A DNA stretch of 64,000 bases, from assembly GCA_963662985.1 (NCBI GenBank), contig OY760066.1, positions 167,801 through 231,800 on the forward strand, in the 5' to 3' direction. This document shows, in pieces, positions 17,718 to 64,000 of the stretch. Position numbers and translations under genes: made by a program. The stretch is from Anaerolineales bacterium. Lineage in GTDB: Bacteria; Chloroflexota; Anaerolineae; Anaerolineales; UBA11579. Positions within the stretch are counted from its first letter, which is position 1; each line of letters starts with the position of its first letter. A model generated the notes under the pieces. The model saw only the letters and a list, made by a program, of their open reading frames with translations, made no database searches and was not told the origin of the DNA.

Positions 17718-17725
17718 AGGATGGC

Positions 17726-32860: not shown

Positions 32861-32872
32861 ATTCTAATTGTA

Positions 32873-32898: not shown

Positions 32899-32930
32899 AG
32901 AAATCATTCTTATATTATTGGAGACATTTT

Positions 32931-33764: not shown

Positions 33765-33773
33765 GGATGAGGT

Positions 33774-38774: not shown

Positions 38775-40006
38775 TTGAAGCACCAAAAGGACAAACACAT
38801 TGGAACCCAACTGGCGAAGAACAATTGGTGGATGATGGGTTTGCTGAGACTATATTGGAAAAAGTGCTGGCGGGAGGAGATGATTCCTTTGAAGCCATGA
38901 CAGCACCTGTACAAAAAGATTTGGGCAAGTGGATATCCAACTATAGTTACGAAGCAATTGCTGGGGCTGTGGACGCTTGGGTGAAGGCTGGGGCGGATGT
39001 GGCAAAGACTAAGGCAATTTTAGCATTATTAACCCGTTTGCGGGATAGTATGTTTGACCCGCAAGAAAAACGACGGGCTTCGATCTTGGATATTGTGGAT
39101 GCAGGGATAAATGCGCTGTTAGACCGCGTACCTTCTTTTGATGCAAAGGCAAAACTCTCTCGGATTACTTGGGAGACACGTGATGCGCTACAAGCTCCGA
39201 CGCATGTGGATGCTATTTTGGTGGTGGATGTGAGTGGCTTCCCAGCGGAAGGGGATGAAGGACCGGGAATCTTCCAAGCAAATGCGTTCCGAATGGGATG
39301 GCACCATTTGGTGTCTTATCGCTGGGCGGGACAACGTTTCTTAGGATGTAATTTGAGCAAGGTCACAGATGCGCTGCGCTTTGATGTTTATGGCTCCCCG
39401 GGGGATTATTTTGCAAGCGGGATGGATGGCGACGAGGTGGCAATGATGATCCACACGAATGCACAAGACCAATTGGCGCAGATTTTCAACCACGGGACAT
39501 TGGTGATCTATGGTGATGTGGGGCAAACGTTTATGTATGGCGCAAAAGGCGGAAAAGCTTTTGTGCGCGGAAACGTGGCCGGACGTCCGTTGATTAATGC
39601 AGTGGGTGCACCGCGAGTGGTGATCAATGGAACCTGTTTGGATTATTTGGCAGAATCGTTTATGGCAGGCGATCCACTGAATGGGGGTGGTTTTGTGATT
39701 TTGAATGGGATTGAATTTGATGACCATGGACAAATGGTTGCTTTGGATGAACCTTATCGCGGGAATAATTTATTCTCTTTGGCATCTGGGGGAGCACTCT
39801 ATGTGCGCGATCCCTATGCGAAGTTGGATGAAAATCAACTGAACGGCGGTATGTTTGCAGATTTGAGTGAAGCGGATTGGAATTTGATCCTGCCCTATTT
39901 AGAAGAAAATGAAGCCTATTTTGGCATTGATGTGGATGCTTTGCTGACTGTGGATGGCAAGGTGATGGCTCCAGAAAAGGTTTATCGTAAAATTTGCCCG
40001 AAGTAA
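38771..40006 (+). CDS. GXGXG-motif beta-helix protein (glutamate synthase C-terminal domain-like; GlxD / archaeal GltC-like)
   Basis: VIYGDVGQTFMYGAKGGKAFVRGNVAGRPLINAVGAPRVVINGTCLDYLAESFMAGD matches the GXGXG repeat domain of GltS. Start proposed at GTG 38771 (GTGA overlap with the upstream stop, GGAGAGG RBS). The track start is 38747. Confidence 0.75.
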   Translation: MIEAPKGQTHWNPTGEEQLVDDGFAETILEKVLAGGDDSFEAMTAPVQKDLGKWISNYSYEAIAGAVDAWVKAGADVAKTKAILALLTRLRDSMFDPQEKRRASILDIVDAGINALLDRVPSFDAKAKLSRITWETRDALQAPTHVDAILVVDVSGFPAEGDEGPGIFQANAFRMGWHHLVSYRWAGQRFLGCNLSKVTDALRFDVYGSPGDYFASGMDGDEVAMMIHTNAQDQLAQIFNHGTLVIYGDVGQTFMYGAKGGKAFVRGNVAGRPLINAVGAPRVVINGTCLDYLAESFMAGDPLNGGGFVILNGIEFDDHGQMVALDEPYRGNNLFSLASGGALYVRDPYAKLDENQLNGGMFADLSEADWNLILPYLEENEAYFGIDVDALLTVDGKVMAPEKVYRKICPK

Positions 40007-42631: not shown

Positions 42632-42667
42632 CAAAAAACAACTGGCTAAGCCAGTTGTTTTTTTGTT
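42632..42667. terminator. Bidirectional intrinsic terminator between TPR gene and giant gene
   Basis: AACAACTGGCtaaGCCAGTTGTT flanked by A-run/T-run. Confidence 0.75.
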
Positions 42668-45600
42668 TTATTTGTAGATTGTTTCTGTAATGATCGGGAG
42701 ATCAAGAGGTTGTCCTTCGATTGCAACTGTATAGTATCCAGGTTTGGCTACTACTGCCCTCACGATGCTGGTTCCGTCTTCTTGATGGTAACGGAAGGAT
42801 TCTAATTCGACCCAGATAAGCTCTCTTTCATCCCAATAGTAAACCACGAGGTGATAACCATTTAGTTGTTCTGGGATGAGGAAATTAATCACCATGCTAC
42901 CAGCAAAGACGGTCATTTCATACCCGAGATTGTGCCATTGCCTAATCAAGACTTGTTTTTGGAATTTGAACCAAGATCCATATGAGTGTAGAATCGAGAT
43001 CATCACCAAATTTTCCAAAGGTGCTGTGTTCGCATTTCTTACAACTTTGTAATCAAGATAGGAGTTCTCGTGGAAGTTGTATCTTGCCCATACAAATGGC
43101 GGTTGTAGGTAAATAATTCTTTCACAGTCTAAATTGGTTATTGGTGACTTATTCTCCCAATGGTAATATGTGGTGTCATAGCCATCGCCACCAATCACAC
43201 GATCATCATATCCAGTGCCAATCCAGAAATCGTCATCACCATCTAAACCAATGAGAAGATCATTCCCGGGGCCACCTTTGAGAACGTTATCATTATTATC
43301 ACCTGTGATGATGTCATTTGCCATCCCACCAGTGACATTTTCAACACCTGTGAGTGTGCCACCTAAATCTGGAATTAACCCAAGCAGTAGGTTGACTTCA
43401 ACTGGAGTTCTTCTATTTTGATAACTGATGGTATCACTACCATCTCCACCTGAGATATCTCCAGATAAGCTTGCACCATCGTCAAGGATAAAGGTGTCAT
43501 CTTTCTCTCCACCAGATAAGTTTTCAAAACTGATAAAATCAAGTGTTCTGTTGGCTGCTTTGACCCAACCTTGATCTGGTGCAGTGAGGTTGAAAATGTT
43601 ATTTTGATCTTGGATGCCAATCAAAGTATCTGAGAAAGTTGTACCTATCAATAGATTGATGTTGTTTAAGGCTTGTGTGAAAATCGATAGATTATCTATG
43701 ATTTTGAAACCATCATAATTGCCAGCTGCTTGCAAAGTAATTTCGATTGCAGATGTGAGTGCGTTGAAGGTGAGTTTGTCATATCCGCGACCTGCGTCAA
43801 GGATACCATTTGCTTTGGCTAAATCTGTAACAGTGAAGATGTCATTTCCGGCATTACCGTAAATATCATAGTCTATGGTTCCTTCGATGTTGAAGGTGTC
43901 TACTGCTCCACTTCCTTGTAAGATATTGGCGTGATTAAAGTAGAGGGTTTGTCCACCGACTTGATAACGATCTGAATCCAGAATACCTGCAAGCGTGAAG
44001 ATGCCATTTGCAAGATAAGTGCTGAGTGTGTTGATGGCTGAACTATTGAATTCAAGTAAATCTATTCCATAGAATTTCAATTGTTCAAGTGATACATTAA
44101 AGCCTGTTGTGGTATATCCCGTCAATTTAGCAAGGATGTCAAATGGGAGTAACTGAGTATCTAAGCGATCAAAACCAGTTTGACCGTATACCATTCCAAG
44201 AGAGGTGATGTTGTCATCTGCAATAAAGAATGTATCATCTCCTACACCTGCAGTGACTTTCAAGTTGGAGTTGCCAGTGGAGAAGAGAAGTTTGTCATCA
44301 TAGGCTGTGAGATTTAGATTTTCAATCGATTGGCCTGTATAATCTACCACTGCACCTGACAGAAGATCTTTGATCTCTGTGGGGGTGAGTTCAAGGTCTA
44401 CTCCAAGAGTTTGTACAGAGTAGTCGATGGTGTCTGTGCCTTGGTTGGCTTTTTCAATGATAGTATCTTGGCCTGCATTTTCGTCCATTTGATAAGTATC
44501 ATTACCAAGGTTTCCAGTTAGTACGTCGTCTCCAAGGTCACCACGGAGTTTATTATTGCCGTTATTCCCAATGAGAATATCATTCCCTGCACCACCTTGA
44601 AGATTTTCAAAGCCATCAATGGATCCGTTCAGGTCTGTGAAAGTTTGGTTGATCATATCCAAAACTACATCTGTTGTGTAGGGGTGATAGGATAAGGTGT
44701 CTTCTCCTGCGTTTGTGTGCATGATGTAGTTATTTGGATTGTACATTTCAAAGAGGTCATCTCCTGCACCGGAGCGAAGTTCATCAAAGAAGTATAATGT
44801 GCCGGTTCGACCACCCATTTCAAATTCAAATGTGTTTTCGTCCAATAATCTGAATATGGTATCCATATCACCACTTTGGAAGATGAAGTAAGCTGTGCTA
44901 CCAATGACGTCATGGATATTATCATAGCGATCTGTGACACCTGTGATGGTACCGGAGTAGCCAGTGAGAGTGCCGAGTTGATCGAAGGTTACCACAACTG
45001 GGACAGTCCAATCACTATAATCGATAGTGTTGCTAGTACCTTCGCCACCGTCTAAGATTGCCCAATATTCTTGGTTGTCTGCGAATTTGAAGGTATCATC
45101 TCCGCCGTCACCGTTAAGGATTAATTTTGTTGTAGGTTCAGCTACTAAAATATCAAACAGGTCATCACCATCTCCTCCGTTGATGGTGAACTCGTTGTTT
45201 AGGCCTACGTTGAACAAGTGAATTTGATCATCACCTGCGTTCCCATTAATGGTTACTTTGAGGTTATCAATGATGTTATTCCAATTGAAGATATCCGCGT
45301 CATCTGATAGATCAAAGGTGACTTCAGAGAAGGTTGCGTTTGGATTGATGTTGAAGGTATCTTGTGTTGCACTACCTAAAATCGAGATGGCTTGAGCATC
45401 AATGGAACCACTCATTTGAATCGTACTGTCAGCATTATCTACATTTTCACAGTTTACATTGATGGTTACTGTTCCATCTGGCACTGTGATGGTTGTGTTA
45501 TCTTCGAGATAGATATTATCACCTGCACAAATGAGGAGATTACCGTTGACTATATTAATCCCATAACCAGACACTAGGGTGAAATTATCATAGTCTACTG

Positions 45601-48600
45601 GAGCAGAATCATGGGCATAGAAGCTGAAGTCACCATCGTTAAATATGTTGCTATCTACTACGATCGGACTGGAGGCACCAATCTTGGTTGGACCTTGCCC
45701 TGTGAATCCGTAGGGAGAACTTCCATCAATCACTTGAATGGTGAGTGGCCCTGTATTTTCAATATATACATCATCATTACCTGCGCTACCTTGTAAGGTA
45801 GAGACCATGCTGAGAAGTGGTGTTGTAGTTGTGCCAATGCCATCTCCGGCGAAGAGTCGAGTCTTTCCGGCAATCACATTGTAGGGATTTTCTTGTGCGT
45901 TGTAGATGCTGTTTGGTGAGAAGATGAAGGCAATGCCTGTGTTGGCGGTGATGACGTTAAGGTATAGATCACCTTCAGCTTCTGACAGATAAACTGAATC
46001 TGCAGATTCAATGGTTAAGTGACTGTTTGCTGTGTGTTGGGTCACTAATTCAATATCATTTCCATTTTCACCAACGGTACCATATTGTGTATATAGGAAG
46101 ATCTTTGTGTTAGCGCCTACTGCATTGATGTTGGATAAGATATCATCTCGTGCGTCTAAGATGGCATTGGTTGCCATGAGGTTGATATACTCTCCTGAAC
46201 CATTGACAGTATCTACTAAGAGATTGCCGATGGCGGCTAAGTTGATGTCGCCAGCGCTGTTGACCACAACACCATTAGGTGAAACAATTTCAAGATAGTA
46301 GTTGCTTAAGAAGTAATGTTCGGGTGAGAGCGCAGGATCATAAGGATCTGTGTCTGTTCGCCCAATATTACCAGTGGTTTCGAGGGTGACTTGATTGGCT
46401 TTGATATTGGCTAATTCGATATTTGATAATCCAGCGGTTGTAGGATCATATGCATCGAAAATATCAACCCCTTTAAGATAGACATCATTTGGTGAGTAAA
46501 TTGTGTCTATTGCCATACCAAAGTCATAAACACCTGTGATTTCTTGGATGTAGATGTTTTGATTTGCACGAGCTGTTAGAGCACCATTTTCCATTAGATC
46601 AATAAGCATGTAGTTATCAGCGGCACCAATGCCTTCTGTGCCAGATTCAAGAATCATATCTCCACCGGAAATTGAATCTCCTGCTTGGCCGTCCCAGATG
46701 AGTTGTTTGCCAACTTTTACTCGGACAAGTTGTTGATCTTCATTTGCTGCATTCAATCCAGCATCGATATCTTTAATTCGTAAGTCTTTTTCACTTCCGA
46801 TATATACATGGCGATCGCTTTCAATTTGAAGGTTTCCAAATTCTGCTGTAATATCAATATCTTCTCTCATTTCGATGACAATGGTCTTTTCGAGAATATC
46901 TACTATTCCTGTGCCATTTAGTGCATCGGCGAGGGAGTTGGTTAGTTGAATGGAGAAGCCATCTTTGGCAATTACATAGTAGGTTTTATAATTGCTAACA
47001 CCATCAATGTTTTTAATGCCCCATACAGATGGGAAGGAAATTTCATCACCTGTTTGTAAGCCATGATATTCACCAAAGACTATGGAATCTGTTTGTCCAT
47101 TGATTATGGTGGCATCATTTCTTTCAGAGGCTGCTAAATTGATACGATCATCTTCTGTGAGTGAAGCCGCACCACCAGTGACATCAATTTCAATGACACC
47201 GTTGTTGCTTCCAACACCACCGTTTTGAGCAATCAAAGTAATATTTCCATTTGCAATTATATTTTCTTCTTCAATGGCTGTGGTGGTGTCTGAGGTTTCT
47301 TTGAGCCAGCCACCTAAGAGCGCATAGCGAAGTTGATATTCTGACCAGATGGAGCCCACAAGAATGGCATCACTTTCAGAGAACCATTGATCTCCGCCAC
47401 CTGTATTTGAGAATTCAATCAAGTTTGCAGGAGTTTCTGCTATCGCATCTGCTTGGGTTGCTGTTAGTTGAATATGTGTGGAGTCGATTACGACTACATA
47501 GTAGGTTTCACCACATTCAAGCCCACCAATGGCTGCATTACCATTACATTGATAAACTACGCGTTGTCCAGTCTTATAAATATGTTCTCCTACATTAATT
47601 GTATTGCCGGAGAGGTCTACTTTGTCTGATGTAAAATCTGGTTCAAAGACTGTGCTAACTTGATATTCCCAAGTATCGTTATAGGTATCACCAATCACTC
47701 CATATACTTCATGAAGGGCGTGATATTGGGATGTAAGTTTGATTTCGTATTGGGCAATAGCAGCATCATCCCAACCAAGTTGAGTACGATAACTGTCTTT
47801 TTGTTCTTCTGTTAAAGTAACTTGGAAGTTTGGATCGTAAACAGAAGGATCCGCTTGTTTGTTTCGGGTTTCCCAATAGCTGTGATATTCAGACGTTCTG
47901 CCATTTTGATAAGCAAGAACAGTTTGATCTGTTTTCGCTCTAGTTTCAGGTGTATCTAATAAGTTTAGATTTGCCCAAAGTGCTTCAAGCTCGTCAATTG
48001 AACGTTGATCTACTTCTTCATTCAACATAGCATCAATAAAGTTTCCACTTGTTGTTTTTAGCCAAACATTGTTGGCTTCGATGGAGAAGAGATTCATGTT
48101 TCCAGCTGTTTCTTGAATGAAGATGTCATTGGATGCATTGACGGTCAAACCACTGTTTGCCTTTGGATAGTAACCATTGATCAATAATGGGGCAGAAGTA
48201 TCCACACCAATATTTTGTGCTTCTAAGGCGATATTATTTCCATATACATGGGTGTTTGTACCTGAACCCACGATGTTGTTATAGGTAAAGAGGTTTACGT
48301 TGCCTTTGCTTGTTCCTACAGAGAGAATATTCATATCTGAAGACCATTGTGAAAGGGCAACATCTCCTTGTGCTGTTGTGGCAGTTAATGTACCATTTGC
48401 TTCTGTTTCTACCCGGATGGGTGCGATATCATTGCCATAGATCAGCCCAATGCCTGTGCCCGCAGTGAGAACAACACTGCTTCCACCTACCATGGCATCA
48501 TCGGATGCAGTGATGGATTTATTGGTGGTGATGGTGGTGGTGCCACTGGGATTGTTGATACGTCCATTCACAACCACATTGCCATCTGCTGAATTAATTG

Positions 48601-51600
48601 TGACTATACCCTGATCTGAACCAGTGAATTTAATTGCAATATCATACCCTGCGTTTACATTGTGGGTAACAATTTGAATTTGACCTTTATTGTAGACTAA
48701 CGTAGAAATATATTCTCTTGATACACAAATTCCAAGGAATCGAGAGGTACAATTGGAATCTGAAGAACTCTCAACTAAATAGCCCTTATCAGGATCAACA
48801 ACGTTCACACCAAAAATTTTAATTTGAGCAGGCTTTGGATCGAGGTCTGTCTTATAGGTAGTTGTATAGTATTGATGTGCAACGGAAAGGGCCGCTTGGC
48901 GATAATACGTACCATTTAATAATGGCTGCTTATCTAACCAAACAGTTTTAGTTTCATCTGGTGGATTTTCATCTTTTGCTAGCCAGTCAATCCCTAAAGT
49001 GGTGTTTTTAATATAGGTATCTGTTGTTTCTTTGATATATTTTTGACCGGTAACAAATCGATAGACTTGATTTGCATATACATCATAGGTGTAATTGCGA
49101 CTGCCTGATGTGGATGTGCGGCTATATTCAGTAGTGCGATATTCGCCACTATCAACATAATTGAAGTCAGTAATGGACACTTTGCCTTCCACTTCAAGGT
49201 TTGAAATATCTCGAATTTCAATATCATAATTGGTATAGTTGTTGATATTGATGGATGCATACCCATCAAGAACTTCAATCTTCCCTTCGTTGGTGTTCAT
49301 GATGCGACCTACAATTTGAACATATCCACCTTGGCTGTTGATGTTTTGAACGATAATACGTTTTGTTTCAGCATTAAACTTGACGATGAATTTTGTGTTC
49401 TTCTTTAATGTGATGATCTTATCGCCAAATCCCATATTATAGTAAGCTACTGCGAGGATCATTCTCACTTCATCGGCTGCAGTAAGATTGATTGTGTAAT
49501 CAGCAAAGCCACTGCGAACTGTTCCATTGATGTTTAGATATTGTGCACTAATGAAGATTTGACCACCTATTTCGAGGAGGCTGGTTGAAGCCACAGGATT
49601 TGTTATCGTTGATGTAGTATTGAAATACATATCAACTGGATCACCACCAATATGGGTAAATCCTTCTGTATATCCTTGGATAAAGTCACCTGATGCTACA
49701 GCAGTAAATTCACCTGCGCGGACCTTTGCCATTTCATCTGGATCATCAATTTTGACAGTCATTAGGATGCTACCTAATGATTCAATATAGACGAGACCAC
49801 GAACATTGTTGATGTCTCCTGCTACACGAACATCAGGAGCAGGTCTGGTGATGGTGGGAGAAGAGCATCCAGGATCATTACAAGAGACTGTTTCGCTTGA
49901 ACGAGTGTTTTTGATGATGACTTCTGGATCGGCTGTACCTGATGAGGTGACCATGGTGATTGTGGGGTGAGAAGAGATTATTGCACCATTTAGATAAATT
50001 ATGCCACCTAAGGTGTCAGGGATGGTGATGTTGTTGGTTGTGAGTGTGAGAAGGGTGTTGTTGATAATTTTAACTTCAACGTCTCCAGGTGCATTAAGTG
50101 AGCCAGAACCTGTCAAGTATGTGGTTTCAATATCGATTGTGCCTGCTTGTGCCCAAATGCCATCCAATTGAATAATATCAATTGATATGTCACTTTGTAA
50201 GTAGTAGGTTCCATCAGATGCTTGTTCAAGTTCAATTCCCATAGAAATAAGCTTGTTGATGATGAAATCAATTTGAGCATCAAAACCAGCGACCGCTTCA
50301 CTATCATAGGCATATTCACCTTTTAGTTTACGAAGGGTGTTGATTTGATCGACATAATTTTGTGATTGCGTTTCATTAATAACGGTATAGCCAATCTCTG
50401 AATCTGGTCCATAGACGACTGATAAGTTGCTGCTATCGTCTCCGTTAAATTCTATTGATTGATGGCGAGTGACACCAACATAAACAGCACCATTTAATTT
50501 GATTTCTTTGCTAATTTGTTCATCTGTTTCTGTTTCTTTGAATGAATAAGCAACATCATCCAAAACACCTTCATCGATGCCTTCTCCACTACTTCCTTCA
50601 AGATCAATTGCGCTACTACCTAATGAGATATAGCCTTCATCGATAATCATGGTAACATTTCCTACCGTTTCAATGAGTGCATTGGTAGGAATGTTAATGA
50701 GGTTGTCTTGAACAATTCTTGAAAGGGCAGTGAGTGATTCGGGGATAAATGCAAAAACTGTATAGTTATAAAGATCAGTGACTGCATAGATGGTGTAGGC
50801 ACTCTTATCAGTGTATGAACCTTTACGTCCAATTTGCAAATTGACATCATTTTGAGAATAAAGGTGGGCGCCAGAGGCTAGATTGATTTGATTTTTGATG
50901 TTGACTACGGACATGGTGGTTCCATATGGAAGACCAGCAAGACCATAGGCTTTTACGTTTACATTTGTGTTAATGTTAGTTTGGAACATGTTGAAGATGC
51001 CCATATCACTAATGGAGAAAATCTCAACATCTCCAAAGTTGATGATGTTTTTGGAAGGATTACTGTAGTCATCTTCATCTCCATCATTGACACCAACTAA
51101 GATCTTTGAGATGCCTTCAGGGAATGGCAAAGCTCCACCTGCATCTAAACGGACGCTGTCATAGGTGTTGAACACTTGTTTGACCATGAAGGTCATTTCG
51201 CGTTCGATATTATCAAAACGATCTCCAAATTGAGCGATATCTGCACCATCTCGGACAAAAATCTGGACATCATTGTCAATTTCTGTGATGCTGTCGCTTG
51301 TGAATAAATCCAAAAGACCAACAGAGACGGCATCCATATTGTAACCATCTTCAAGCTCAGGTTTGTTGGTGTACGCAATCGCTTCCACTGTGATACGGTT
51401 CGCGCGAAGGGTTAGGTCGCCAAGATCTGCGTAGATGGTGGCGTCAATCTTGTTGAGATTCTTTGAGCCACCAAAATCTGCAAGGGAAACGCTTACGGAG
51501 TCTGTTGAGGCATTGAATGCATCTGTGTGTTGAGCATAGAAATTAAAATCGTTTGAAGTAATTTCAACTTGATTGCCTGAGGCGATATTCGCTTTGGTTG

Positions 51601-57600: not shown

Positions 57601-60600
57601 TTTGTACTGTGGCAAGTGATTGAACAATGATATCGTCTTGTGCGTATACATAAGAAGAATCAATGTATGCTAAAGTTGATTTTGTGAGAGATCCAACGTC
57701 AATACCTACGCCAACCGCAACTGTGCCAGCGCCATTGATGGCACCTGCAACACCCCAGATGACTGTGTCGTTAATTGCTCTGACGATAACTGACTGGTCA
57801 GGATCTGCATCAGTGTCGTCTTGATTCACTGATGCATCTTTAATAAATGCTTCGGTATCCTCCACGAGGACATTGACACTACCTGAAACATTGACAGCGA
57901 CTGTGCCTGCGCCTCCTCCACCGACAGCAAATGAACGGACTTGTTCGTTGGTGTGTGCTACGACAGCAACACCTTGGAATTGGCTGTCACTTCGATCCGC
58001 ACCGCGAATTTTAGATGTGCCTTTCTTTCCGCTTGCTTTAACTTTGACACCTTCAATATAAGCGTAGGTGTGATTGTTGGTGACTAATGCGTTGACTGAG
58101 ACACCTACGGCGACTGTGCCAGCCCCATTTGCAACACCTGCAATGAACAAAAGGAAGATGGCATCTTTTGCAGATATACCAACGTTTCCTACGGCATCAA
58201 TGATGTGGTCATAGTCACCTAAGGTTGAATTGTATCCAGTGCCTTTGATATAAGCATTGGTGTTTGTTTGAATATAGCCAACAACAACAGAACCACCAAT
58301 GGCTACGTTGCCAGCGCCTTGCCCGCCAACTGCTAAGGCAATCACTTGAGTATCGTCAATGGCGTCGACCAAGAGATGTTCGCCAATGTTCATGCTTGAA
58401 TTGAGGACATAGGCTTCGGTTCTGTTGATGATGATGTTGACACTGATGGATGCTCCGATGGCAACTTTGCCTGCACCTGCTGCATTGCCTGAAAGGGCAT
58501 GAACAGCGGTGCTTTGTTGTGCATTAACTGAAACTGTGCCAAGAGCATCGATGGTAGACTCTTCAATGGAAGCTTTGACTGAATTGAGAGTGAGATTGGC
58601 GGCGATGGCTCCTGCAATGGCTGCTTTTTCTGCGCCTGCTCCACCTGCTACGATGGATTCGATATTGCCATCTTCTTTGGCGAATACGTTGATATCACCA
58701 TCTACGTCAATTGTTGAATTAAGGATCGTGGCGGTAACATCGTTATCAAGCCAGTTGAATGCGATTGCAACTCCGAGACCTGCTGTGCCACCAATGCCAA
58801 TCGCACCAGAAATGGCAACAATCAAAGAATCGTTGAACGCATCCACTGAGAGCAAGCTATCGAGTTGGGTGTTGTTGACGATGGAATCTTTGATGCGCGC
58901 GATGGTATCTGTGAGAGTCATGGTGACGGCAACTGTGCCAGAAATTCCATATTTTTTGGAGGCAGCAACTGCACCGGCTACACTGACCAAAACACCTGTG
59001 GAATCTGAATCAACTTTCAAATGACCTTTATAAGTTAAGTCGGAATTATCAACTTCTACGATTGTATCTGAGAAGATTGAATTGAAAGCAACTCCTGCGC
59101 CCACACCAGCTGTGCCACCGTATGAAACTGCACCGGCAACCACTACCACGACTGAATGATCTATAGCTACTGCTGAGATTTCATCGGCAGTAATTTTTGC
59201 ATTCTTGATGGTGCTGTAGGTACCATTGTTGAGAATGTTGATGGAAACAGAACCCGCAAATGCAATGCCTTTTTTGGCAAAATCGCCAGCACAACCGGCT
59301 GCAACTGCGATAATCTTGCCACTGCGATTTGAGGAAAGCAATACGCCTTGGGCAAGGGTGTGATCTGTGCCATCTACGGCGCCAAGATCAATCTTGCTAC
59401 CATTAATTGCGTCAAGATAAGATGTAGCAAGTTGGAATGTGTTGGTGGAACCGTCTATTCCGATCAAGTAATAAATTTGACCATCTTCTAAACCACTAAT
59501 GTTATCTGTGGATAAATCTTGATAATAAATGAAGCTATCACCTGTGTTTTGTGCGTGATTACTATTGACAGTAATAACGTCATCGGTGATATTTGTGATC
59601 TTTAAGTTCTTCCCTGAAGATTGAACTATGTTTGAATTTTCAATTAATGTGGTTGTTTCCCCTTCCATCCAATCAAAACCAATAGCACCTGCTATGGCGG
59701 CAGATGATTTTGCTTTTGAATTTAGATTCAAGGCTGCTGCCCCTGCGATTGATATAAGTAAGGAGGGGTTATCAGCTTTGAGGGCGACATTATTGGCTAC
59801 GATTGTGCCAGCATTAATGATTTGGGCTTTGACAGTGTCGAAAAGCACATTGACTGCAATTGCACCTGAAACGGCAAATGCGTTTTTGGCTGATTTGTTT
59901 GTGGTTTGGGTTGTACCTGTGTTGCCGGAAGGATCTTCTCCTTTTTGGGCTAATTCAGTTTGTTTGAATGGTGTGGGTACTCCGCCAAAAGGTGGAATTT
60001 TCTTTGAAGATTGACCTGTGGAGTCTGTTTGGGTTTTAGATTTATCTTCTTTCTTTTCAGTAACGATGGCACCTGCCAAAGAAACACTCAAAACAAAACC
60101 ACTGTTTTGTGCGTTTAAGTTGACATTATCACTTCCGTTGATGACTTTGATTAATGGATCTGTTTGTACATCTCCAGAAATTGAAACAACGCCAGAGGCG
60201 GTTTGAATGGAAGTGAGTTCATTGAGGGCTGCTTGAATCTCGTCTGCAGAAGCGTTCCAAGCTAATGGACGGGTTGTTTGACCATTAAAAGTGAGTGTAA
60301 AGGCACCTTGTTTTGAAGTGCCAATTACATTTAGCTCTTCGTGTTGAGTGCTACCATTCCCATCTTGATCTACTGTTACGATCGGAGTCGCTAAGTAGGA
60401 TTCGACTGAGCGAATATAGAAAGTATCTTGATCACCATAGGTGGTGAAGGTGATGATAATTTCTCGTGTACCATCTGCAAGGTAGTTTGAAACTACGGTG
60501 ATGTCATCAATCTCTTCAAACTTTTCTAATTCGGCTTCAATGGTAGCATCGTCCACATCAAACATCAATGGGGCTGTGGTGAGATTTTGATCTGCTCCAA

Positions 60601-63600
60601 AAATGATAACAAATGCCCCTTCTGTGGTGTCACCACTAATGGATAATTTTTGTTCTTCATAAGTGTCGCTTGCACCAAATTCAATAATGTTAAGATCTGC
60701 TTCACCATCAAAGTTGATGTCTGTGAGAATGGTCATTTCGGCTTGTTCCCCAACATTGAGGAAGGTAATCAATACGCCGTCGTCTCCAATGGTGACTTCA
60801 ACAACACCAGCACCATAAAGAGTGTCTAAAGCTGCTTGAATGATGTCAATATCGGCATCATAAGCAATCGCGACTGTGGTTCCGAGGCCTTCTACTGAAA
60901 TTTGATAGGTTCCTTGAGTTGCACCAGAAATGTCTAGAACAACTTGTTCTTCAATTGCATCAGCACCTTCAACGGTGGTTTCGCTAGTTACTGTCCCATT
61001 AATCTCGGGGACTACTGAGGCGGTGATGTTGCCTTGGTCGTCTGTATTGTTAAAGTAGACTTCCCAAACGTTTGTACTGCCATCGTCTTCACTACCAATC
61101 AAAGCAAGTGTTTCGCGATTGACAATATTGACACCAATTGTGGCACCAACACCAACACTATTGCTGGCAATCACGCCACCGGCAATGTTGATTAATGACA
61201 AGTGATCGTTGGCGACTACTGCTACGTCTCCACTGCCTGTGATTTTGGCTGTGCCAGAAATCTTTGCGATGGTTTTGTTATTCAACACAACTACAGGAAT
61301 TGTGGCAGAAATCGCTAATTTTTCACTCTTTGCACCGGATTCGGTGAGGATTAAGTAGAAGTTTTCTTGGTTTGCAATTACTTCTAATTTTCCATCTGCT
61401 CCAATATGAACTTGAGCACCGGCATCGATGGTGGCATAGGCAGAATTTTTAATGACCGCTACAAAAATGGCACCACCTAAGCCTAAGGATTTGCCTTCCA
61501 CCCCAATTGGTGTGATCCAGTTAAGGGGGTTAAGTTTATCTTTGGCCTTCTTGAGTTTATTGATGTAACTATCGATAATACCATTTCCACCTGCTGATGG
61601 GACTGGTTGAAGATCAATATTAAAGTTCCCTGTTACGTTCATTAAGTTAGCAACGATATTGGAAGTGACTCTAACACTTTGGGTAACTTTTTGATAATTG
61701 GTGTCTTGATTGATATAAGCAGCTGCGCCGATATTGGAGTAAGCTTTTGAATCTAAGACTAAGGCATTAATCGTGCCTGTAATGGCGTATTTAGGGGCTG
61801 AACCGCTCACTCGGCTGTGAGACCATGTATGGAATAATTTGCCTTGCAAGCCTAATGTGCCGTCTAATTTTCCACTGATATCATCTACAATTGTCATTAC
61901 ATCGCCAGCTTCATCAAATTCTAAAAAGTCTCCGGCGTCTAATAAGGAGTACCAATCGAGAGGATGGGTAATGAAGGGGTAAACAATCTCTGAGCTAACT
62001 GCTAGATCACGGGATGCATCTACATGGCTCATTGGTTCAATTAATGCTTGTACAGTTGTTTTGATGACATTGACAGTGAGTGAGACACTACCGGCAAAAT
62101 TCAATTGGTTTTCGTTCTCTTCGGGAATGTCAGAAGTTGCGCTGGCAAATGATTGGAAAAGAATTACTGCGTCTGCTTTGACATCAATATCTTGTCCAGA
62201 TTTCAAAATGGCAGATGTCCCCACTTTTGCGTTAACATTGCTAACTGCGATGGTGATGGCAGGTGCTCCGGTGATGGAGAACTTCACATCTTTCTTTGTT
62301 TTTTGTTGGACTTCTTCTGTCTTTTTATCGCTTACACCAAAAATTGCTTCTTTAATCTTGGTGATGCCCTCTCCTAATAATAACTTTGTGATGGAAAGGC
62401 CATCATTCATAATCACACCCGTAAGTGCGCCTTTTAAGTTTGCAAAAATGGTGTCGTTGGTGCCAATACCTGCAAATGAAGAGTTGCTTAGGTTGGCATC
62501 TAAATGAGCGGTGATTCCAATACCGTTGGTTAATCCTCGATCAAGATAATGAGAGTCTAAGTTGGCTACAGGAGCGCTAACATCAATAGGGCCAACATTG
62601 GATGCATCTTCATTTTTAGTGAGCATGAAGTTATTGTCGTCAATTTTGACTACGTAATAAAGATCACCATTCTCTAAACCTGAGATGGCTGGATCCATTA
62701 CTTCAACGATAATTGTTCTAGAGAAATAATCATCGCCTGTTCCTAAGGTAGTGAAATCAACCGGAGTGCCGGTGTTGTTGAGGGCATCATCTTGATTTGT
62801 ATAGAGCCAAATCTCCTGCGTGTTTTCATCTGCAACTCTGACATAATAGGCTGTGCCGTCTGTGAGACCGCCAATGAGATCTCCTACATTGTGATAGATC
62901 AATTCATCACCATTTGCTAAATTCAAGAAAAGAATGGTGAGTTTGTTATCAGTTAAGTTGATTTGATCTGTTGTTGCTTGAATTGTGTAGTTTTGATTGA
63001 TGGTTTGTTGAAGGGTTGTTTGCCCTGTTTTATATACAACGGAATCACCTGTTTCAAATCCATGATTTGCGATAGTGAAAATATCTGTTTCTGAATTTAC
63101 ATTGGCATTATCTGCTGCTTCAAAGAGTACTCCGTTGTCTACATCTACATAGGAGAAGCCGTGGGTATATTTTGTGTATTCATCATAGGCTAAATTTGCG
63201 TAATCCGGTACTGCAACTGGGGCTGCTTGCCAGGTGGGATCACTATCTAAGTTGAGTGCTTGGGATAAATATTCAGCCAATTGGAATGTGTCTGCATCAA
63301 TGAGAATTACATAGTAGCTTTTGTAGTCTTCAAGACCAGGAATAGGGTAGCTACCTAAAGCTGAATAGGTTACTTCTTCACCGTTATCAAAACCATGTGC
63401 ATCAATATTAAATGTAATTTGGCCTTGTTTAGAAATATCTGAAGAGCCGTCGTTGATTGAGACAATACCAAAATCTGTGGCATCATTGGGATTCACTTGT
63501 CCATCATAGCCGGGATTAAATTGAATGACTGCGATGGGAGCGATGACATGGTTGCTGCCTGGTTGTGCACCTGAATTATCAATGTCGATGGCAGTTTCAC

Positions 63601-64000
63601 TGACCAAGAAGAAATGATCTTCATCAATAACAACTACTAAATAGACACCACTCTGTTCGAGACCACCGATGGTGGGAGTGCTGCCATAAGTATAGGTAAC
63701 ATAGTCACCGGTTTGGAGACCATGGTTTTCGTAATAGAATATGTTGGTTGTATAATCAATTGCACCTGTGTCAATTGTAAGTAAGCTTGCGTCTGCGGTT
63801 GTGCTGCCAGTGGCAGTAATTTGTCCGTTGACTATGGCATTGACATCACTTATGGCTACGTCCACTGAAGCAGTGAAACCTGCATAGCCAATCATTTCAA
63901 ATAATGTGAAGGCGGCATTTGTGGCCGCGTTATTGACCCCTTTTGCCTGGAGGTTGGCAAATCTACCTGCTGTGATGGATGCAGTGGAATCCATTTCTAT
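42668..64000 (-). CDS. Giant (>=7108 aa) repeat-rich beta-helical surface/secreted protein with C-terminal RTX-like Ca-binding nonapeptide repeats; N-terminus may extend beyond window
   Basis: A single uninterrupted reading frame covers the last 21.3 kb. Hundreds of ~40-50-aa G/A/V/T-rich repeats (…GAGTVAVGVSVNALVTNNHTYAYIEG…, …AGTVAVNVSGSVNVLVEDTEAFIKD…) suggest a parallel beta-helix. C-terminal GGxGxD runs (GGAGNDILIGNNGNNKLRGDLGDDVLTGNLGNDTY ; GGPGNDLLIGLDGDDDFWIGTGYDDRVIGGDGYD). The frame stays open for the 2 codons between the first in-window Met (63992-63994) and the window edge. Confidence 0.85.
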   Translation of the reverse strand: MEMDSTASITAGRFANLQAKGVNNAATNAAFTLFEMIGYAGFTASVDVAISDVNAIVNGQITATGSTTADASLLTIDTGAIDYTTNIFYYENHGLQTGDYVTYTYGSTPTIGGLEQSGVYLVVVIDEDHFFLVSETAIDIDNSGAQPGSNHVIAPIAVIQFNPGYDGQVNPNDATDFGIVSINDGSSDISKQGQITFNIDAHGFDNGEEVTYSALGSYPIPGLEDYKSYYVILIDADTFQLAEYLSQALNLDSDPTWQAAPVAVPDYANLAYDEYTKYTHGFSYVDVDNGVLFEAADNANVNSETDIFTIANHGFETGDSVVYKTGQTTLQQTINQNYTIQATTDQINLTDNKLTILFLNLANGDELIYHNVGDLIGGLTDGTAYYVRVADENTQEIWLYTNQDDALNNTGTPVDFTTLGTGDDYFSRTIIVEVMDPAISGLENGDLYYVVKIDDNNFMLTKNEDASNVGPIDVSAPVANLDSHYLDRGLTNGIGITAHLDANLSNSSFAGIGTNDTIFANLKGALTGVIMNDGLSITKLLLGEGITKIKEAIFGVSDKKTEEVQQKTKKDVKFSITGAPAITIAVSNVNAKVGTSAILKSGQDIDVKADAVILFQSFASATSDIPEENENQLNFAGSVSLTVNVIKTTVQALIEPMSHVDASRDLAVSSEIVYPFITHPLDWYSLLDAGDFLEFDEAGDVMTIVDDISGKLDGTLGLQGKLFHTWSHSRVSGSAPKYAITGTINALVLDSKAYSNIGAAAYINQDTNYQKVTQSVRVTSNIVANLMNVTGNFNIDLQPVPSAGGNGIIDSYINKLKKAKDKLNPLNWITPIGVEGKSLGLGGAIFVAVIKNSAYATIDAGAQVHIGADGKLEVIANQENFYLILTESGAKSEKLAISATIPVVVLNNKTIAKISGTAKITGSGDVAVVANDHLSLINIAGGVIASNSVGVGATIGVNIVNRETLALIGSEDDGSTNVWEVYFNNTDDQGNITASVVPEINGTVTSETTVEGADAIEEQVVLDISGATQGTYQISVEGLGTTVAIAYDADIDIIQAALDTLYGAGVVEVTIGDDGVLITFLNVGEQAEMTILTDINFDGEADLNIIEFGASDTYEEQKLSISGDTTEGAFVIIFGADQNLTTAPLMFDVDDATIEAELEKFEEIDDITVVSNYLADGTREIIITFTTYGDQDTFYIRSVESYLATPIVTVDQDGNGSTQHEELNVIGTSKQGAFTLTFNGQTTRPLAWNASADEIQAALNELTSIQTASGVVSISGDVQTDPLIKVINGSDNVNLNAQNSGFVLSVSLAGAIVTEKKEDKSKTQTDSTGQSSKKIPPFGGVPTPFKQTELAQKGEDPSGNTGTTQTTNKSAKNAFAVSGAIAVNVLFDTVKAQIINAGTIVANNVALKADNPSLLISIAGAAALNLNSKAKSSAAIAGAIGFDWMEGETTTLIENSNIVQSSGKNLKITNITDDVITVNSNHAQNTGDSFIYYQDLSTDNISGLEDGQIYYLIGIDGSTNTFQLATSYLDAINGSKIDLGAVDGTDHTLAQGVLLSSNRSGKIIAVAAGCAGDFAKKGIAFAGSVSINILNNGTYSTIKNAKITADEISAVAIDHSVVVVVAGAVSYGGTAGVGAGVAFNSIFSDTIVEVDNSDLTYKGHLKVDSDSTGVLVSVAGAVAASKKYGISGTVAVTMTLTDTIARIKDSIVNNTQLDSLLSVDAFNDSLIVAISGAIGIGGTAGLGVAIAFNWLDNDVTATILNSTIDVDGDINVFAKEDGNIESIVAGGAGAEKAAIAGAIAANLTLNSVKASIEESTIDALGTVSVNAQQSTAVHALSGNAAGAGKVAIGASISVNIIINRTEAYVLNSSMNIGEHLLVDAIDDTQVIALAVGGQGAGNVAIGGSVVVGYIQTNTNAYIKGTGYNSTLGDYDHIIDAVGNVGISAKDAIFLLFIAGVANGAGTVAVGVSVNALVTNNHTYAYIEGVKVKASGKKGTSKIRGADRSDSQFQGVAVVAHTNEQVRSFAVGGGGAGTVAVNVSGSVNVLVEDTEAFIKDASVNQDDTDADPDQSVIVRAINDTVIWGVAGAINGAGTVAVGVGIDVGSLTKSTLAYIDSSYVYAQDDIIVQSLATVQIISISAAGGGAGTVAVSGVAAVYVLVINTHAYITGSTSVIMANDSILISAVDDMFALIIVGTANGAGVVAVGGDVQVSSIVKHVTSYVDDNVTIDALSNGNGLTAPTGNFNISWAAKPNTDFNPANISGDIITLQDHGYETGDQVIYNNCNDLEQEDDETDQEYKDRLNLASIGGLNTGQAYYIIKESDDTFRLALTYENAIAGNAITLDKNQATGDTHKVEIAYGITVKPTSINPSSDVVDNKITLQDHGFNTGDSVTYSSGGGDVIGGLEEGASYYIIKIDANTFMLADRKTAAQNGIAITLDPTLATGAEHMIWDGTVEDPGTGYQIPGLSAVSDDVNNDGESDLDSGSEQDFSNMLNSERASQVETTTIHGLAITAINQEKLITIGFSVGGAGTVAVNVSGAVNVNVGEVKAYIDQGAKVNTCTTCTIGNNQNVIVIAAQDLFHIGVTVAIAGSGVVSVTPHGDVNVITSEVKAYINDGATVNAKQDVLVDAISKEFIVTVTAGVSGAGVVGVDASFSVLVLTSDVWAYIGDEDQTDTQGATVFANGNVYVNAEHETFLVSVAGGFGGGQVGVGASVSTKVFSNDVRAFIGPYSIVNAKGQNAGLNGVYQGSMDENGVVATMDDFHGVIVQATNKEKMIGVTVSGSFGLYFGLGGAVSVEVFDSSARAYIGEYAKINQDRSNVDSRQAVSVIAFNNTDIFIFAGGIAGGLVGVGAAIDVGVIRNDAIAFIGQHAIVYAKSDVKVIALNNKDIFSLPVSLGGGLVGIAGSLSVWVIGGEFDSSYDVSDDDVEYSDDVDEEDKFGSVNEDPLNDGENGDKFDASVGVTSNGTNEILSSSQTFNALGDGSNGTQNNRIKAINDANNGVYDNFDGASKEGDPEETTMVADALDAQGEGTECITTAYIANNAAIIIDGPDGNVIVKAHDRLNFKSITGAVAAGAGAGGAGITVSVIGSKTEAYIGSYAIVEAGANNGSVDVIAQFDEITTIQTYGITAGLATNSAQVAVTVDKAMTHAYIRDHAKIRQAGDQVLINAITNRDINIQVLSTNLSALPAGSNYGVSVTVAVIQGETLAFAHNVSIGQDPTKTVGGLSIIANETTNITTNSIAVSAGAFSLVVASGVIVVVDNSSTVMAYIDDSDTSVFSTITVTGDVLVNAILTSTIDAVIPNVSVNIGPIGAGAIVGVILNRPTVKAFAMNDATISLNGDFTIQADLTATQDVDVVGVTGAAISVGVLVAYIKDTAEIVSGFKGTIYNIDWVNFDNNVNVISNVDTDLTVTGVGVTIGGVAVGVTTTIVKIKGSVKTGIEDSLIYTNNLNVASNLNLAANSNVTNASGAVAAVGVSVATASIGSDTENYIVKTFIKNSSIYASGSSKIIANVDPAAKADVTGVTVAGIGVGVSVATTNVYFDIDTFLYNCLVYSDELIISTKYSLDDAGDPIEEGAKAFSDAVGGGILSGNGAESDATNKPTIDTYGTGTFNIGTNLEISSDAYVYTYADANGIAVGVAGMGGSTANATSEATNTVYFSGELRDYDTNAEDQVDTVNIYAHTTDRAIAHTISGAGGIVAGGGSLSDAKGTSTTYAYIGDFSEIYWKEDVEFIVEANGTPYVEATADGISAGLLSVGLSFAYAVSEPEIKAWIGEDVIIRFGAFLTQNPQLVFANNPNTIMVISTITDTFNYVDGPLLFTLGTFQFYAFDILQRTSGSWFDDGFTEGSKIRISGIGISGYQYYEVYSISDDGLEMTVDDYSTFMDRLTSGTITIELLVDSKDTITRDSGSWIVDGFTKGDTIEISGQEGYWIIDSMSADGLTLYLTSKGTLQVGTFNDIQIKRIDGNLGNFTLKAQQTFVDEMDTTNELGSQTWIENNTPNAKASASTSGGNLVGVLASESEASSTATIEAILKDGIDIIVSNAFKVIAHTESYQNAEAFGITVTAVALGSNIATANADNQTKMKVLGDLKLIANSVEMQANGIDVNIAHSVAGRGSLLETMAAAKANTNSTSTTKANIASGNQVEITSNDFNFYAQHTDAFNASTDSVSVSLADFGGSKNLNKIDATIYADLGDLTLRANRITVEAIAYTNKPELEDGYNMDAVSVGLLDLFTSDSITEIDNDVQIFVRDGADIAQFGDRFDNIEREMTFMVKQVFNTYDSVRLDAGGALPFPEGISKILVGVNDGDEDDYSNPSKNIINFGDVEIFSISDMGIFNMFQTNINTNVNVKAYGLAGLPYGTTMSVVNIKNQINLASGAHLYSQNDVNLQIGRKGSYTDKSAYTIYAVTDLYNYTVFAFIPESLTALSRIVQDNLINIPTNALIETVGNVTMIIDEGYISLGSSAIDLEGSSGEGIDEGVLDDVAYSFKETETDEQISKEIKLNGAVYVGVTRHQSIEFNGDDSSNLSVVYGPDSEIGYTVINETQSQNYVDQINTLRKLKGEYAYDSEAVAGFDAQIDFIINKLISMGIELEQASDGTYYLQSDISIDIIQLDGIWAQAGTIDIETTYLTGSGSLNAPGDVEVKIINNTLLTLTTNNITIPDTLGGIIYLNGAIISSHPTITMVTSSGTADPEVIIKNTRSSETVSCNDPGCSSPTITRPAPDVRVAGDINNVRGLVYIESLGSILMTVKIDDPDEMAKVRAGEFTAVASGDFIQGYTEGFTHIGGDPVDMYFNTTSTITNPVASTSLLEIGGQIFISAQYLNINGTVRSGFADYTINLTAADEVRMILAVAYYNMGFGDKIITLKKNTKFIVKFNAETKRIIVQNINSQGGYVQIVGRIMNTNEGKIEVLDGYASININNYTNYDIEIRDISNLEVEGKVSITDFNYVDSGEYRTTEYSRTSTSGSRNYTYDVYANQVYRFVTGQKYIKETTDTYIKNTTLGIDWLAKDENPPDETKTVWLDKQPLLNGTYYRQAALSVAHQYYTTTYKTDLDPKPAQIKIFGVNVVDPDKGYLVESSSDSNCTSRFLGICVSREYISTLVYNKGQIQIVTHNVNAGYDIAIKFTGSDQGIVTINSADGNVVVNGRINNPSGTTTITTNKSITASDDAMVGGSSVVLTAGTGIGLIYGNDIAPIRVETEANGTLTATTAQGDVALSQWSSDMNILSVGTSKGNVNLFTYNNIVGSGTNTHVYGNNIALEAQNIGVDTSAPLLINGYYPKANSGLTVNASNDIFIQETAGNMNLFSIEANNVWLKTTSGNFIDAMLNEEVDQRSIDELEALWANLNLLDTPETRAKTDQTVLAYQNGRTSEYHSYWETRNKQADPSVYDPNFQVTLTEEQKDSYRTQLGWDDAAIAQYEIKLTSQYHALHEVYGVIGDTYNDTWEYQVSTVFEPDFTSDKVDLSGNTINVGEHIYKTGQRVVYQCNGNAAIGGLECGETYYVVVIDSTHIQLTATQADAIAETPANLIEFSNTGGGDQWFSESDAILVGSIWSEYQLRYALLGGWLKETSDTTTAIEEENIIANGNITLIAQNGGVGSNNGVIEIDVTGGAASLTEDDRINLAASERNDATIINGQTDSIVFGEYHGLQTGDEISFPSVWGIKNIDGVSNYKTYYVIAKDGFSIQLTNSLADALNGTGIVDILEKTIVIEMREDIDITAEFGNLQIESDRHVYIGSEKDLRIKDIDAGLNAANEDQQLVRVKVGKQLIWDGQAGDSISGGDMILESGTEGIGAADNYMLIDLMENGALTARANQNIYIQEITGVYDFGMAIDTIYSPNDVYLKGVDIFDAYDPTTAGLSNIELANIKANQVTLETTGNIGRTDTDPYDPALSPEHYFLSNYYLEIVSPNGVVVNSAGDINLAAIGNLLVDTVNGSGEYINLMATNAILDARDDILSNINAVGANTKIFLYTQYGTVGENGNDIELVTQHTANSHLTIESADSVYLSEAEGDLYLNVITANTGIAFIFSPNSIYNAQENPYNVIAGKTRLFAGDGIGTTTTPLLSMVSTLQGSAGNDDVYIENTGPLTIQVIDGSSPYGFTGQGPTKIGASSPIVVDSNIFNDGDFSFYAHDSAPVDYDNFTLVSGYGINIVNGNLLICAGDNIYLEDNTTITVPDGTVTINVNCENVDNADSTIQMSGSIDAQAISILGSATQDTFNINPNATFSEVTFDLSDDADIFNWNNIIDNLKVTINGNAGDDQIHLFNVGLNNEFTINGGDGDDLFDILVAEPTTKLILNGDGGDDTFKFADNQEYWAILDGGEGTSNTIDYSDWTVPVVVTFDQLGTLTGYSGTITGVTDRYDNIHDVIGSTAYFIFQSGDMDTIFRLLDENTFEFEMGGRTGTLYFFDELRSGAGDDLFEMYNPNNYIMHTNAGEDTLSYHPYTTDVVLDMINQTFTDLNGSIDGFENLQGGAGNDILIGNNGNNKLRGDLGDDVLTGNLGNDTYQMDENAGQDTIIEKANQGTDTIDYSVQTLGVDLELTPTEIKDLLSGAVVDYTGQSIENLNLTAYDDKLLFSTGNSNLKVTAGVGDDTFFIADDNITSLGMVYGQTGFDRLDTQLLPFDILAKLTGYTTTGFNVSLEQLKFYGIDLLEFNSSAINTLSTYLANGIFTLAGILDSDRYQVGGQTLYFNHANILQGSGAVDTFNIEGTIDYDIYGNAGNDIFTVTDLAKANGILDAGRGYDKLTFNALTSAIEITLQAAGNYDGFKIIDNLSIFTQALNNINLLIGTTFSDTLIGIQDQNNIFNLTAPDQGWVKAANRTLDFISFENLSGGEKDDTFILDDGASLSGDISGGDGSDTISYQNRRTPVEVNLLLGLIPDLGGTLTGVENVTGGMANDIITGDNNDNVLKGGPGNDLLIGLDGDDDFWIGTGYDDRVIGGDGYDTTYYHWENKSPITNLDCERIIYLQPPFVWARYNFHENSYLDYKVVRNANTAPLENLVMISILHSYGSWFKFQKQVLIRQWHNLGYEMTVFAGSMVINFLIPEQLNGYHLVVYYWDERELIWVELESFRYHQEDGTSIVRAVVAKPGYYTVAIEGQPLDLPIITETIYK

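Follow-up and report, generated by a model that had tools for sequence, protein, structure and literature searches.

The stretch analysed here (the window) comprises 64,000 nt of contig OY760066.1, positions 167,801 to 231,800, and ends in a single giant coding sequence on the minus strand (42668-64000). The frame is unbroken for 21,333 nt, from the stop codon at 42668-42670 up to base 64000, and the remaining two minus-strand frames contain 380 and 588 stops. The single open reading frame (ORF) of more than 21 kb described in the first-pass annotation, which was made from the sequence alone, is thus found as stated. The first ATG, at 63994, gives a product of 7,108 amino acids (aa); two further in-frame codons lie upstream (IEMDSTAS...), with no stop before the ATG. 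Coordinates below are window positions, and aa numbers refer to this visible 7,108-aa protein. That the window edge truncates the N-terminus had been suspected and proves correct: a related contig (L001) carries the frame 88 nt past the edge (...GGISFAILVSIIDSKIEMDSTAS...), and a complete orthologue has 1,332 extra N-terminal residues. By comparison with this orthologue, the window holds the C-terminal 84% of the gene, about 1,332 residues lie outside it, and the full protein measures about 8,440 aa. Its net charge, -551 in the visible part and about -690 in the whole, makes it extremely acidic.

The orthologue was reached through a word-index homology search with aa 1370-2450 as the query, which returned a 91%-identical fragment (P0002) whose 90% cluster includes a protein of 6,700 aa (P0219). 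The contig of the latter (L004; ENA ERZ21831104, 51,954 bp) carries the complete orthologous gene at 5452-30775, as a 6,700-aa ORF followed by a 1,676-aa ORF; the split is a single frameshift in an A-run, between ...TPETRAK and TDQTVLAY.... The gene order on this contig is shikimate-pathway (aro) genes, the 6,700-aa ORF, the 1,676-aa ORF, a convergent tetratricopeptide repeat (TPR) gene, a PD40 protein and an extracytoplasmic function (ECF) sigma factor. Residues 1333-6686 of the orthologue align to aa 1-5354 and residues 1-1676 of the shorter ORF to aa 5433-7108, at 84% identity and nearly without indels (5,354 versus 5,357 columns in the first part and 1,676 versus 1,676 in the second). Contigs L001 and L005 represent the same species as L004 (98% nucleotide identity).

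Nei-Gojobori estimates against the orthologue over 7,039 aligned codons give a synonymous divergence (dS) of 1.07 and a nonsynonymous divergence (dN) of 0.10, with a dN/dS of 0.096 overall and of 0.04-0.17 in every 400-codon bin. This comparison of coding sequences shows an intact gene under purifying selection along its whole length. It might be argued that the frame is nevertheless artefactual or decaying, whether as a chimeric assembly, through repeat collapse or as a pseudogene: the gene is broken into several ORFs in contigs L001, L004 and L005, and its GC content at third codon positions (GC3) is 0.35 against a host background of 0.20-0.25. However, the relatives' frames are interrupted by 1-2-nt indels, many at homopolymers, in contigs of long-read style (those in L001 are of the type made by long-read errors), and the window copy runs for 21.3 kb without any frame break. 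No segment is relaxed, and two species differing at a dS of about 1 have the same number of repeats and the same order of domains. Because purifying selection extends over the full length and the repeat and domain counts agree between the species, the reading as an assembly artefact or pseudogene is left with negligible probability and is effectively refuted. The exact retention of these counts at such divergence suggests that the length itself is under selection.

Synonymous divergence from the orthologue is uneven along the gene, at 0.43-0.87 for aa 1-2800 and 1.2-3.0 for aa 2800-7108, with dN/dS low throughout, which suggests recombination or a mosaic history between the copies of the two species. 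GC3 is uniform (0.32-0.38) and falls between the host background, which includes the adjacent TPR gene, and an island of electron-transfer flavoprotein (ETF) and glutamate-synthase genes described below. A 171-aa ORF lies antisense within the giant gene (58509-59024, plus strand) and almost certainly reflects nothing more than the Gly/Ala/Val-rich coding strand opposite.

The repeat family, previously described as unassigned, is NCBIfam NF012206, LktA_tand_53 (E=7e-98, 320.7 bits against a cut-off of 50, in 14 stretches); judged by this profile match, the protein is by its repeat a member of the family. An iterative hidden Markov model (HMM) census of the composite protein counts about 29 copies of a 53-aa unit, confined to aa 634-3749, in place of the hundreds first proposed; NCBIfam sets 14 above threshold. 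The Gly/Ala/Val/Thr-rich motif quoted earlier agrees with the HMM consensus, AVGASIxVNVxxxxTxAYIxxxxxIxAxGxVxVxAxxxxxIxxIAGAxA. The census places the copies in four blocks on the minus strand: block I at aa 634-990 (61025-62095); block II at aa 1374-2196 (57407-59875), which holds the best-scoring repeats and one barrel-like insert (aa 1468-1532); block III at aa 2531-2896 (55307-56404); and a degenerate block IV at aa 3033-3749 (52748-54898), whose E-values are weaker (1e-4 to 1e-10). Summed over every recognised repeat and domain, coverage comes to only about 2,600 of the 7,108 residues, and BLASTP reveals no internal repeats within aa 3960-5460 or 5690-7108.

An AlphaFold2 model of aa 1460-1900, built from a 48-row alignment of homologous segments, has a mean predicted local distance difference test score (pLDDT) of 85, rising to 95-99 over the repeats, and a predicted template modelling score (pTM) of 0.80. 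Its structure is all-beta and repeats strictly every 53 residues. The best structural matches of the modelled repeats are the shafts of TpsA proteins, the exoproteins of two-partner secretion (TPS, type Vb), at an identity of only 8-16%; SufBD, tailspikes, pectate lyases and curli are also matched, and weak matches include the functional amyloids CsgA and FapC. High-confidence prediction thus makes the repeats a right-handed parallel beta-helix like that of TpsA shafts, and the parallel beta-helix guessed from the raw sequence is supported by the model and its fold matches.

Between and around the repeats the HMM census recognises ten barrel-like inserts of 60-80 aa, three tandem domains of about 100 aa and two domains named 'GSW'. 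Five of the small beta-barrel-like inserts, with the consensus HGxxTGDxVxY...GGLxxGxxYYVIxxDxxTxxLA, occupy aa 80-468 (62591-63757, minus strand, as are all features of the protein), two occupy aa 2257-2430 (56705-57226) and two more aa 5460-5694 (46913-47617). A profile of 18 copies of the insert matches the phage endosialidase beta-barrel 4hiz at E=6e-4; Pfam matches below threshold, to End_beta_barrel, CarD RID and E1_FCCH, are all to small SH3/Tudor-like barrels. With the endosialidase barrel family itself (PF12195) the best score is 16.6 bits, below the gathering threshold of 35, and 4 of the 18 copies reach E<=0.01, which amounts to resemblance only. For the tandem trio of ~100-aa domains (aa 1001-1273, 60176-60994), a PDB sequence search finds 9d93, a tail-tip cage protein of a phage (E=1e-5). 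In tblastn searches of phage genomes (E 1e-4 to 2e-6 across the phage matches), the barrel region matches a cyanophage baseplate wedge protein and the ~100-aa domains match mycobacteriophage minor tail proteins. These similarities are weak hints that the barrels and the ~100-aa domains may be binding modules.

Two linkers stand out by composition: a low-complexity Lys/Thr/Ser/Pro/Gly-rich stretch at aa 1313-1372 (59879-60058) and an acidic Asp/Gly/Asn/Ser/Glu-rich one at aa 2914-3030 (54905-55255). The latter contains SYDVSDDDVEYSDDVDEEDKFGSVNEDPLNDGENGD at aa 2916-2951 and is the acidic D/E-rich linker remarked on earlier. The 'GSW' domains, a tandem pair of about 65 aa each (aa 3831-3963, 52106-52504), belong to no Pfam family. 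A central region without recognisable domain follows (aa 3970-5460, 47615-52087), which has no Pfam, NCBIfam or PDB sequence match except a borderline one to toastrack DUF4097 at about aa 5130-5245; its dN/dS is 0.09-0.17. The region at aa 5700-6210 (45365-46897) likewise belongs to no family, has a dN/dS of 0.04-0.06 and displays a beta-helix-like sequence pattern judged by eye only. Some 2,200 residues of aa 3970-6210 have no Pfam, NCBIfam or PDB relative beyond the toastrack match. No homologues are detectable for about 3,700 residues: 1,100 at the N-terminus, 2,200 in the centre and those of the C-terminal domain.

The C-terminal repeats-in-toxin (RTX) blocks seen in the first reading are real. 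The calcium-binding region (aa 6210-6950, 43145-45367) consists of several GGxGxDxUx blocks separated by non-RTX segments, with GGxGxD motifs clustered at aa 6251-6943. It gives a Pfam HemolysinCabind match, the only other Pfam signal on the visible protein being a weak E1_FCCH. PDB sequence matches are to the RTX blocks of CyaA (E=4.5e-19, five stretches) and to serralysin beta-rolls, and partial NCBIfam matches are to serralysin and RTX_toxin. The protein ends in an orphan domain of 164 aa (42671-43162) that has no Pfam or NCBIfam family. Among 1.84 billion representatives this domain has two matches, a 69%-identical orthologue fragment and a 298-aa protein (P0226) that likewise combines RTX repeats with a distant copy of the domain. 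A single-sequence AlphaFold2 model of the last 308 aa reaches a pLDDT of 31.

The N-terminus of the L004 orthologue, MQFNKQRIILKLFVAIILLTVFILPQNAQHNFTVFA/DGG, reads by inspection and hydropathy as an n-h-c Sec-type signal sequence, and its hydrophobic core is followed by a plausible VFA/D signal-peptidase site. This segment is the only transmembrane (TM)-like hydrophobic stretch in 8,440 aa. Next comes a low-complexity linker about 190 aa long (P 19%, E 18%, T 17%, S 12%), referred to below as the PT-rich linker. Neither the TPS domain PF05860 (at E<=0.1) nor DUF4347 or any other known domain is found in the first 1,400 aa of the orthologue. No TpsB (ShlB/FhaC, POTRA) gene occurs in the window or in the L004 flanks, and no ABC exporter, membrane fusion protein (MFP) or TolC gene occurs in the 42 kb of the window beside the giant gene or in the L004 flanks (5 kb on each side); the sole ABC system of the window is a FecCD-type importer. 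The absence of type I secretion system (T1SS) components and of a two-partner partner, noted before for the window, holds for those flanks as well. There is no LPXTG anywhere in the protein, in agreement with the lack of a sortase motif reported before, and the C-terminus, ...GQPLDLPIITETIYK, has no hydrophobic tail. NCBIfam models for type IX secretion (T9SS), namely the Por_Secre_tail and gliding C-terminal domains (TIGR04183, TIGR04131), find no match at E<=0.1 when applied to the last 220 or 1,110 aa, and the host does not resemble Bacteroidota. SLH, LysM, CWB2, CW_binding_1, GW and SH3b find no Pfam match in the visible 7,108 aa or the first 1,400 aa of the orthologue, and the orphan C-terminal 164 aa match none of the NCBIfam T1SS target families. 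By these tests the protein does not qualify as a TpsA protein, a T1SS substrate, a sortase substrate or T9SS cargo.

The envelope of the host bears on how such a protein might reach the surface. Two solute-binding proteins of the window have lipoboxes followed by Ser/Thr/Glu-rich tethers, a monoderm pattern; the closest named relatives of the window LarC are all Clostridia, at about 49-50% identity; and the phosphotransferase system (PTS) in the window has an Mga-type regulator. On these grounds the host is probably an uncultured, low-GC, monoderm, Clostridia-like bacterium, and if it is a monoderm, Sec export alone would be enough to bring the protein to the surface.

Since searches of the protein against Pfam, NCBIfam and PDB sequences detect no enzyme, catalytic, toxin or pore-forming domain, we favour a Sec-exported fibrous adhesin or matrix fibre over an enzyme or toxin, and regard this as the probable, though by no means secure, reading of the sequence. 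Several observations weigh against it. The N-terminus was read from the orthologue of a different species (84% protein identity) and not from the genome of the window, and cleavage of the signal peptide was judged by eye and hydropathy only. The protein has no known anchor (LPXTG, SLH, LysM, CWB2 or C-terminal TM segment), so that its retention at the surface is conjecture. The classical setting of RTX blocks is type I secretion, a route that works without an N-terminal signal, and in a Sec substrate they are unusual. We infer the phylum and envelope type of the host from a window without an rRNA or ribosomal marker. The barrel inserts are poorly modelled (pLDDT 30-45), and their family matches all stay under curated thresholds. 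Finally, the gene adjoins the aro operon in only some close relatives and is thus an accessory gene.

The lack of a recognisable anchor domain and the plausible VFA/D site would equally suit a released fibre, in which the signal is cleaved and the protein self-associates outside the cell in a calcium-dependent manner as extracellular matrix, biofilm scaffold or S-layer-like fibre. RTX-containing S-layer and matrix proteins exist, and the weak fold matches to CsgA and FapC also speak for this possibility. The fold evidence, however, fits an anchored adhesin equally well, a PT-rich linker that immediately follows the signal sequence would more typically be a tether spanning the wall, and a single-copy 8.4-kaa gene with GC3 well above background is an unlikely source of a major S-layer subunit. 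We consider a released fibre unlikely, if still deserving attention. The RTX blocks invite another reading, that of a T1SS adhesin or toxin of a diderm, exported C-terminus first by an ABC/MFP/TolC machinery encoded elsewhere, as are LapA, MpIBP, FrhA and CyaA, with the N-terminal hydrophobic segment acting as a retention or plug element and not as a Sec signal. Genuine RTX blocks near the C-terminus, a non-RTX domain after the last of them, the joining of RTX repeats to a distant copy of the same domain in P0226, the strong acidity of the protein and the fact that exporter genes can be unlinked from their substrates are all in keeping with it. Yet a classical n-h-c signal begins the orthologue at residue 1 and leads into the PT-rich linker, and T1SS substrates are not known to carry N-terminal signal peptides. 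Exporter genes are missing from the 42 kb downstream in the window and from 5 kb on either side in L004, the host looks monoderm, and the orphan C-terminal domain corresponds to no recognised T1SS signal family. Type I secretion of this protein seems to us decidedly improbable.

The name of the repeat model points to yet another possibility, a TPS exoprotein and cytotoxin like the leukotoxin LktA of Fusobacterium necrophorum, which leaves the cell by type Vb secretion (bioRxiv 10.1101/534297); TpsA shafts are the best match of the modelled repeats, and the relative P0063 carries a TPS domain. Against this, PF05860 is undetected in the orthologue, where the 190-aa linker takes the expected site of the TPS domain, no TpsB gene stands beside the giant gene in either species, the host is probably monoderm, and a shared shaft repeat says nothing about toxicity. 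The probability left for this reading is very small.

Comparison with known systems places the Sec-exported fibre beside several classes of giant surface proteins. LktA_tand_53 proteins such as LktA (about 3,200 aa) share with it the 53-aa tandem repeat, a predicted beta-helical shaft, large size, acidity and an extracellular location. LktA, however, is a type Vb (TPS) substrate from an lktBAC operon (bioRxiv 10.1101/534297), whereas the giant protein has no TPS domain or TpsB gene, is about 2.6 times longer and bears barrel inserts, RTX blocks and the orphan C-terminal domain. The TpsA adhesins EtpA (8vba), HMW1 (2odl), HxuA (4i84) and FHA (1rwr) are matched at 8-16% identity and differ from it in the 53-aa unit, the secretion route and probably the envelope type. 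Giant T1SS RTX adhesins of the LapA, MpIBP, FrhA and SiiE class have multi-thousand-residue repetitive stalks of Ig-like or BIg repeats, C-terminal RTX and distal ligand-binding modules, carry no N-terminal Sec signal and are served by dedicated genes for ABC, MFP and outer-membrane (OMP) components. A long repetitive stalk and C-terminal RTX blocks are common to both, but in the giant protein the stalk is a predicted beta-helix, the orthologue has a Sec-type signal, and no ABC/MFP/OMP genes are linked. Gram-positive wall fibres such as Ebh of Staphylococcus aureus (about 10,000 aa) resemble it in the Sec signal, the very long repetitive rod and a host that is probably monoderm; Ebh is helical and has a C-terminal TM anchor, which the giant protein lacks.

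The same repeat occurs in relatives together with other modules: TPS in P0063, LysM in P0041 from a Firmicutes metagenome-assembled genome, and DUF4347 in Nostoc. The P0041 protein shares the LktA-type repeat and differs in its LysM, of which the giant protein has none. The Nostoc linckia FACHB-104 protein (L002, 1010-14299) is complete at 4,429 aa and consists of DUF4347, 24 LktA_tand_53 repeats and barrel inserts. It is like the giant protein in the repeats and in the same tandem barrel inserts, with 27% identity over aa 77-397, and unlike it in the N-terminal DUF4347, the absence of an RTX match at E<=0.001, the half size and the phylum. In this contig (contig88, L002 1010-19557) the Nostoc gene lies directly beside XisF, the excision recombinase of the fdxN element, with nifS and nifU beyond, and may be situated inside the developmentally excised element.

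A word-index search with the first 1,000 aa (61001-64000) returned only a weak FliD-like match and missed the ~84-90% identical P0219, P0220 and P0221, so that its null result reflects the word index and not biology. All 92 matches of a second word-index search are shorter than 1,900 aa, which is not evidence that giant homologues are absent. A 52-mer from the window end has no exact match in genome or metagenome contigs, and a protein-pattern scan with the first 400 aa finds none in metagenomes and only 27%-identical cyanobacterial proteins in genomes. In a third close lineage, the nearest examined (L008; JGI 3300042270), the aro operon is present and the giant gene does not follow it. Together with the intermediate GC3, this suggests an accessory, possibly acquired, gene.

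Downstream of the giant gene, a convergent gene on the plus strand (40863-42599) encodes a membrane-anchored TPR protein of 578 aa with an N-terminal TM segment. A hairpin at 42633-42663 separates the two genes; with T-runs on both sides it could be used as a terminator in both directions, and an equivalent hairpin is present in L004. The TPR gene adjoins the giant gene in both species (30878-32629 in L004; 578-583 aa, 72% identity), and its product could be a functional partner of the giant protein. Past the TPR gene synteny is lost, the PD40 and ECF sigma factor genes of L004 standing against the glutamate-synthase/ETF island of the window. This island (32868-40006) comprises ETF alpha and beta genes and a split, archaeal-style three-gene glutamate-synthase-like operon, with a GC content of 47-48% and a GC3 of 0.44-0.48 amid genes of GC3 0.20-0.25, and is the result of either horizontal transfer or strong codon bias. 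Several ORFs of 150-194 aa on the opposite strand within it (34646-38810) are probably spurious.

The rest of the window is ordinary chromosome, with genes of c-di-GMP and two-component signalling, LarBCE, the PTS, a GH38 glycosidase, the iron ABC importer, ETF and the split glutamate synthase; an Rfam search of the window finds no RNA families. The dense signalling cluster (2366-15389) encodes a pair each of GGDEF proteins and response-regulator HD-GYP proteins, along with a 1,296-aa hybrid PAS histidine kinase and a 667-aa fusion of an ABC substrate-binding domain with a PAS domain. It is followed by a LarC-LarE-LarB gene cluster for the nickel-pincer cofactor (15605-18475). The listed LarE ORF (16842-17717, TTG start) overlaps LarC by 92 nt, and contigs L006 and L007 of the same species have the gene called at 266 aa, so that translation probably begins later than the listed TTG.

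If the giant protein is indeed a Sec-exported fibre, it would leave the cell N-terminus first through the Sec translocon. An uncleaved signal sequence and the PT-rich linker would tether it to the membrane and span the cell wall, and cleavage would release it. The beta-helix segments would form a rigid segmented stalk of roughly 100 nm (estimated from about 26 aa and 0.48 nm per rung), presenting the small barrels and ~100-aa domains as binding modules. The only detectable relatives of these candidate modules are phage receptor-binding and tail proteins and the sialic-acid-binding endosialidase barrel. The RTX blocks would fold only on meeting extracellular calcium and so stiffen the distal C-terminal end. 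A fuller picture can be drawn of a monoderm with a Sec-exported, tethered fibre whose distal end consists of RTX blocks and the orphan cap. Calcium-driven RTX folding would act here outside type I secretion, as a ratchet or stiffener, the TPR protein would be an assembly or anchoring partner, and the ~3,700 homologue-less residues could hide new binding or enzymatic modules. This combination is offered tentatively, as it is quite unlikely to hold in all its parts.

The size of the protein is less unusual than it first seemed. Described as one of the largest bacterial proteins, it remains, at about 8,440 aa, under the published threshold of 10,000 aa for 'large' proteins, 'giant' ones beginning at 30,000 aa and the maximum being 85,804 aa (West-Roberts et al., bioRxiv 10.1101/2023.11.21.568195). 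UniProtKB lists more than 41,000 proteins above 5,000 aa across all life (PMC11573180), and in the literature surface proteins are the main bacterial class of this size after nonribosomal peptide synthetases (NRPS) and polyketide synthases (PKS). The protein is large but not exceptional. A relation to Omnitrophota-type giant proteins was rejected, as multiple TM segments and a SecA-like domain are lacking, the size is well below theirs and the neighbouring genes are Clostridia-like; an NRPS or PKS was rejected as no such domains are present.

A 21-kb ORF that is striking in the raw sequence thus proves to be a genuine gene of an ordinary class, its product being a giant surface protein whose repetitive build uses an already catalogued repeat. 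Its residual interest lies in the combination of a Sec signal with RTX blocks and in the ~3,700 residues without homologues; with about half of the protein lacking any detectable homologue, a structural study could pay off should the organism be brought into culture. The RTX blocks indicate that such repeats can end an apparent Sec substrate in an organism of probably Gram-positive type. Because its relatives join it to different export and anchor modules, the LktA-type repeat is a portable shaft, now paired with at least four of them: TPS, DUF4347, LysM and, in the protein described here, an apparent Sec signal with a PT-rich linker.

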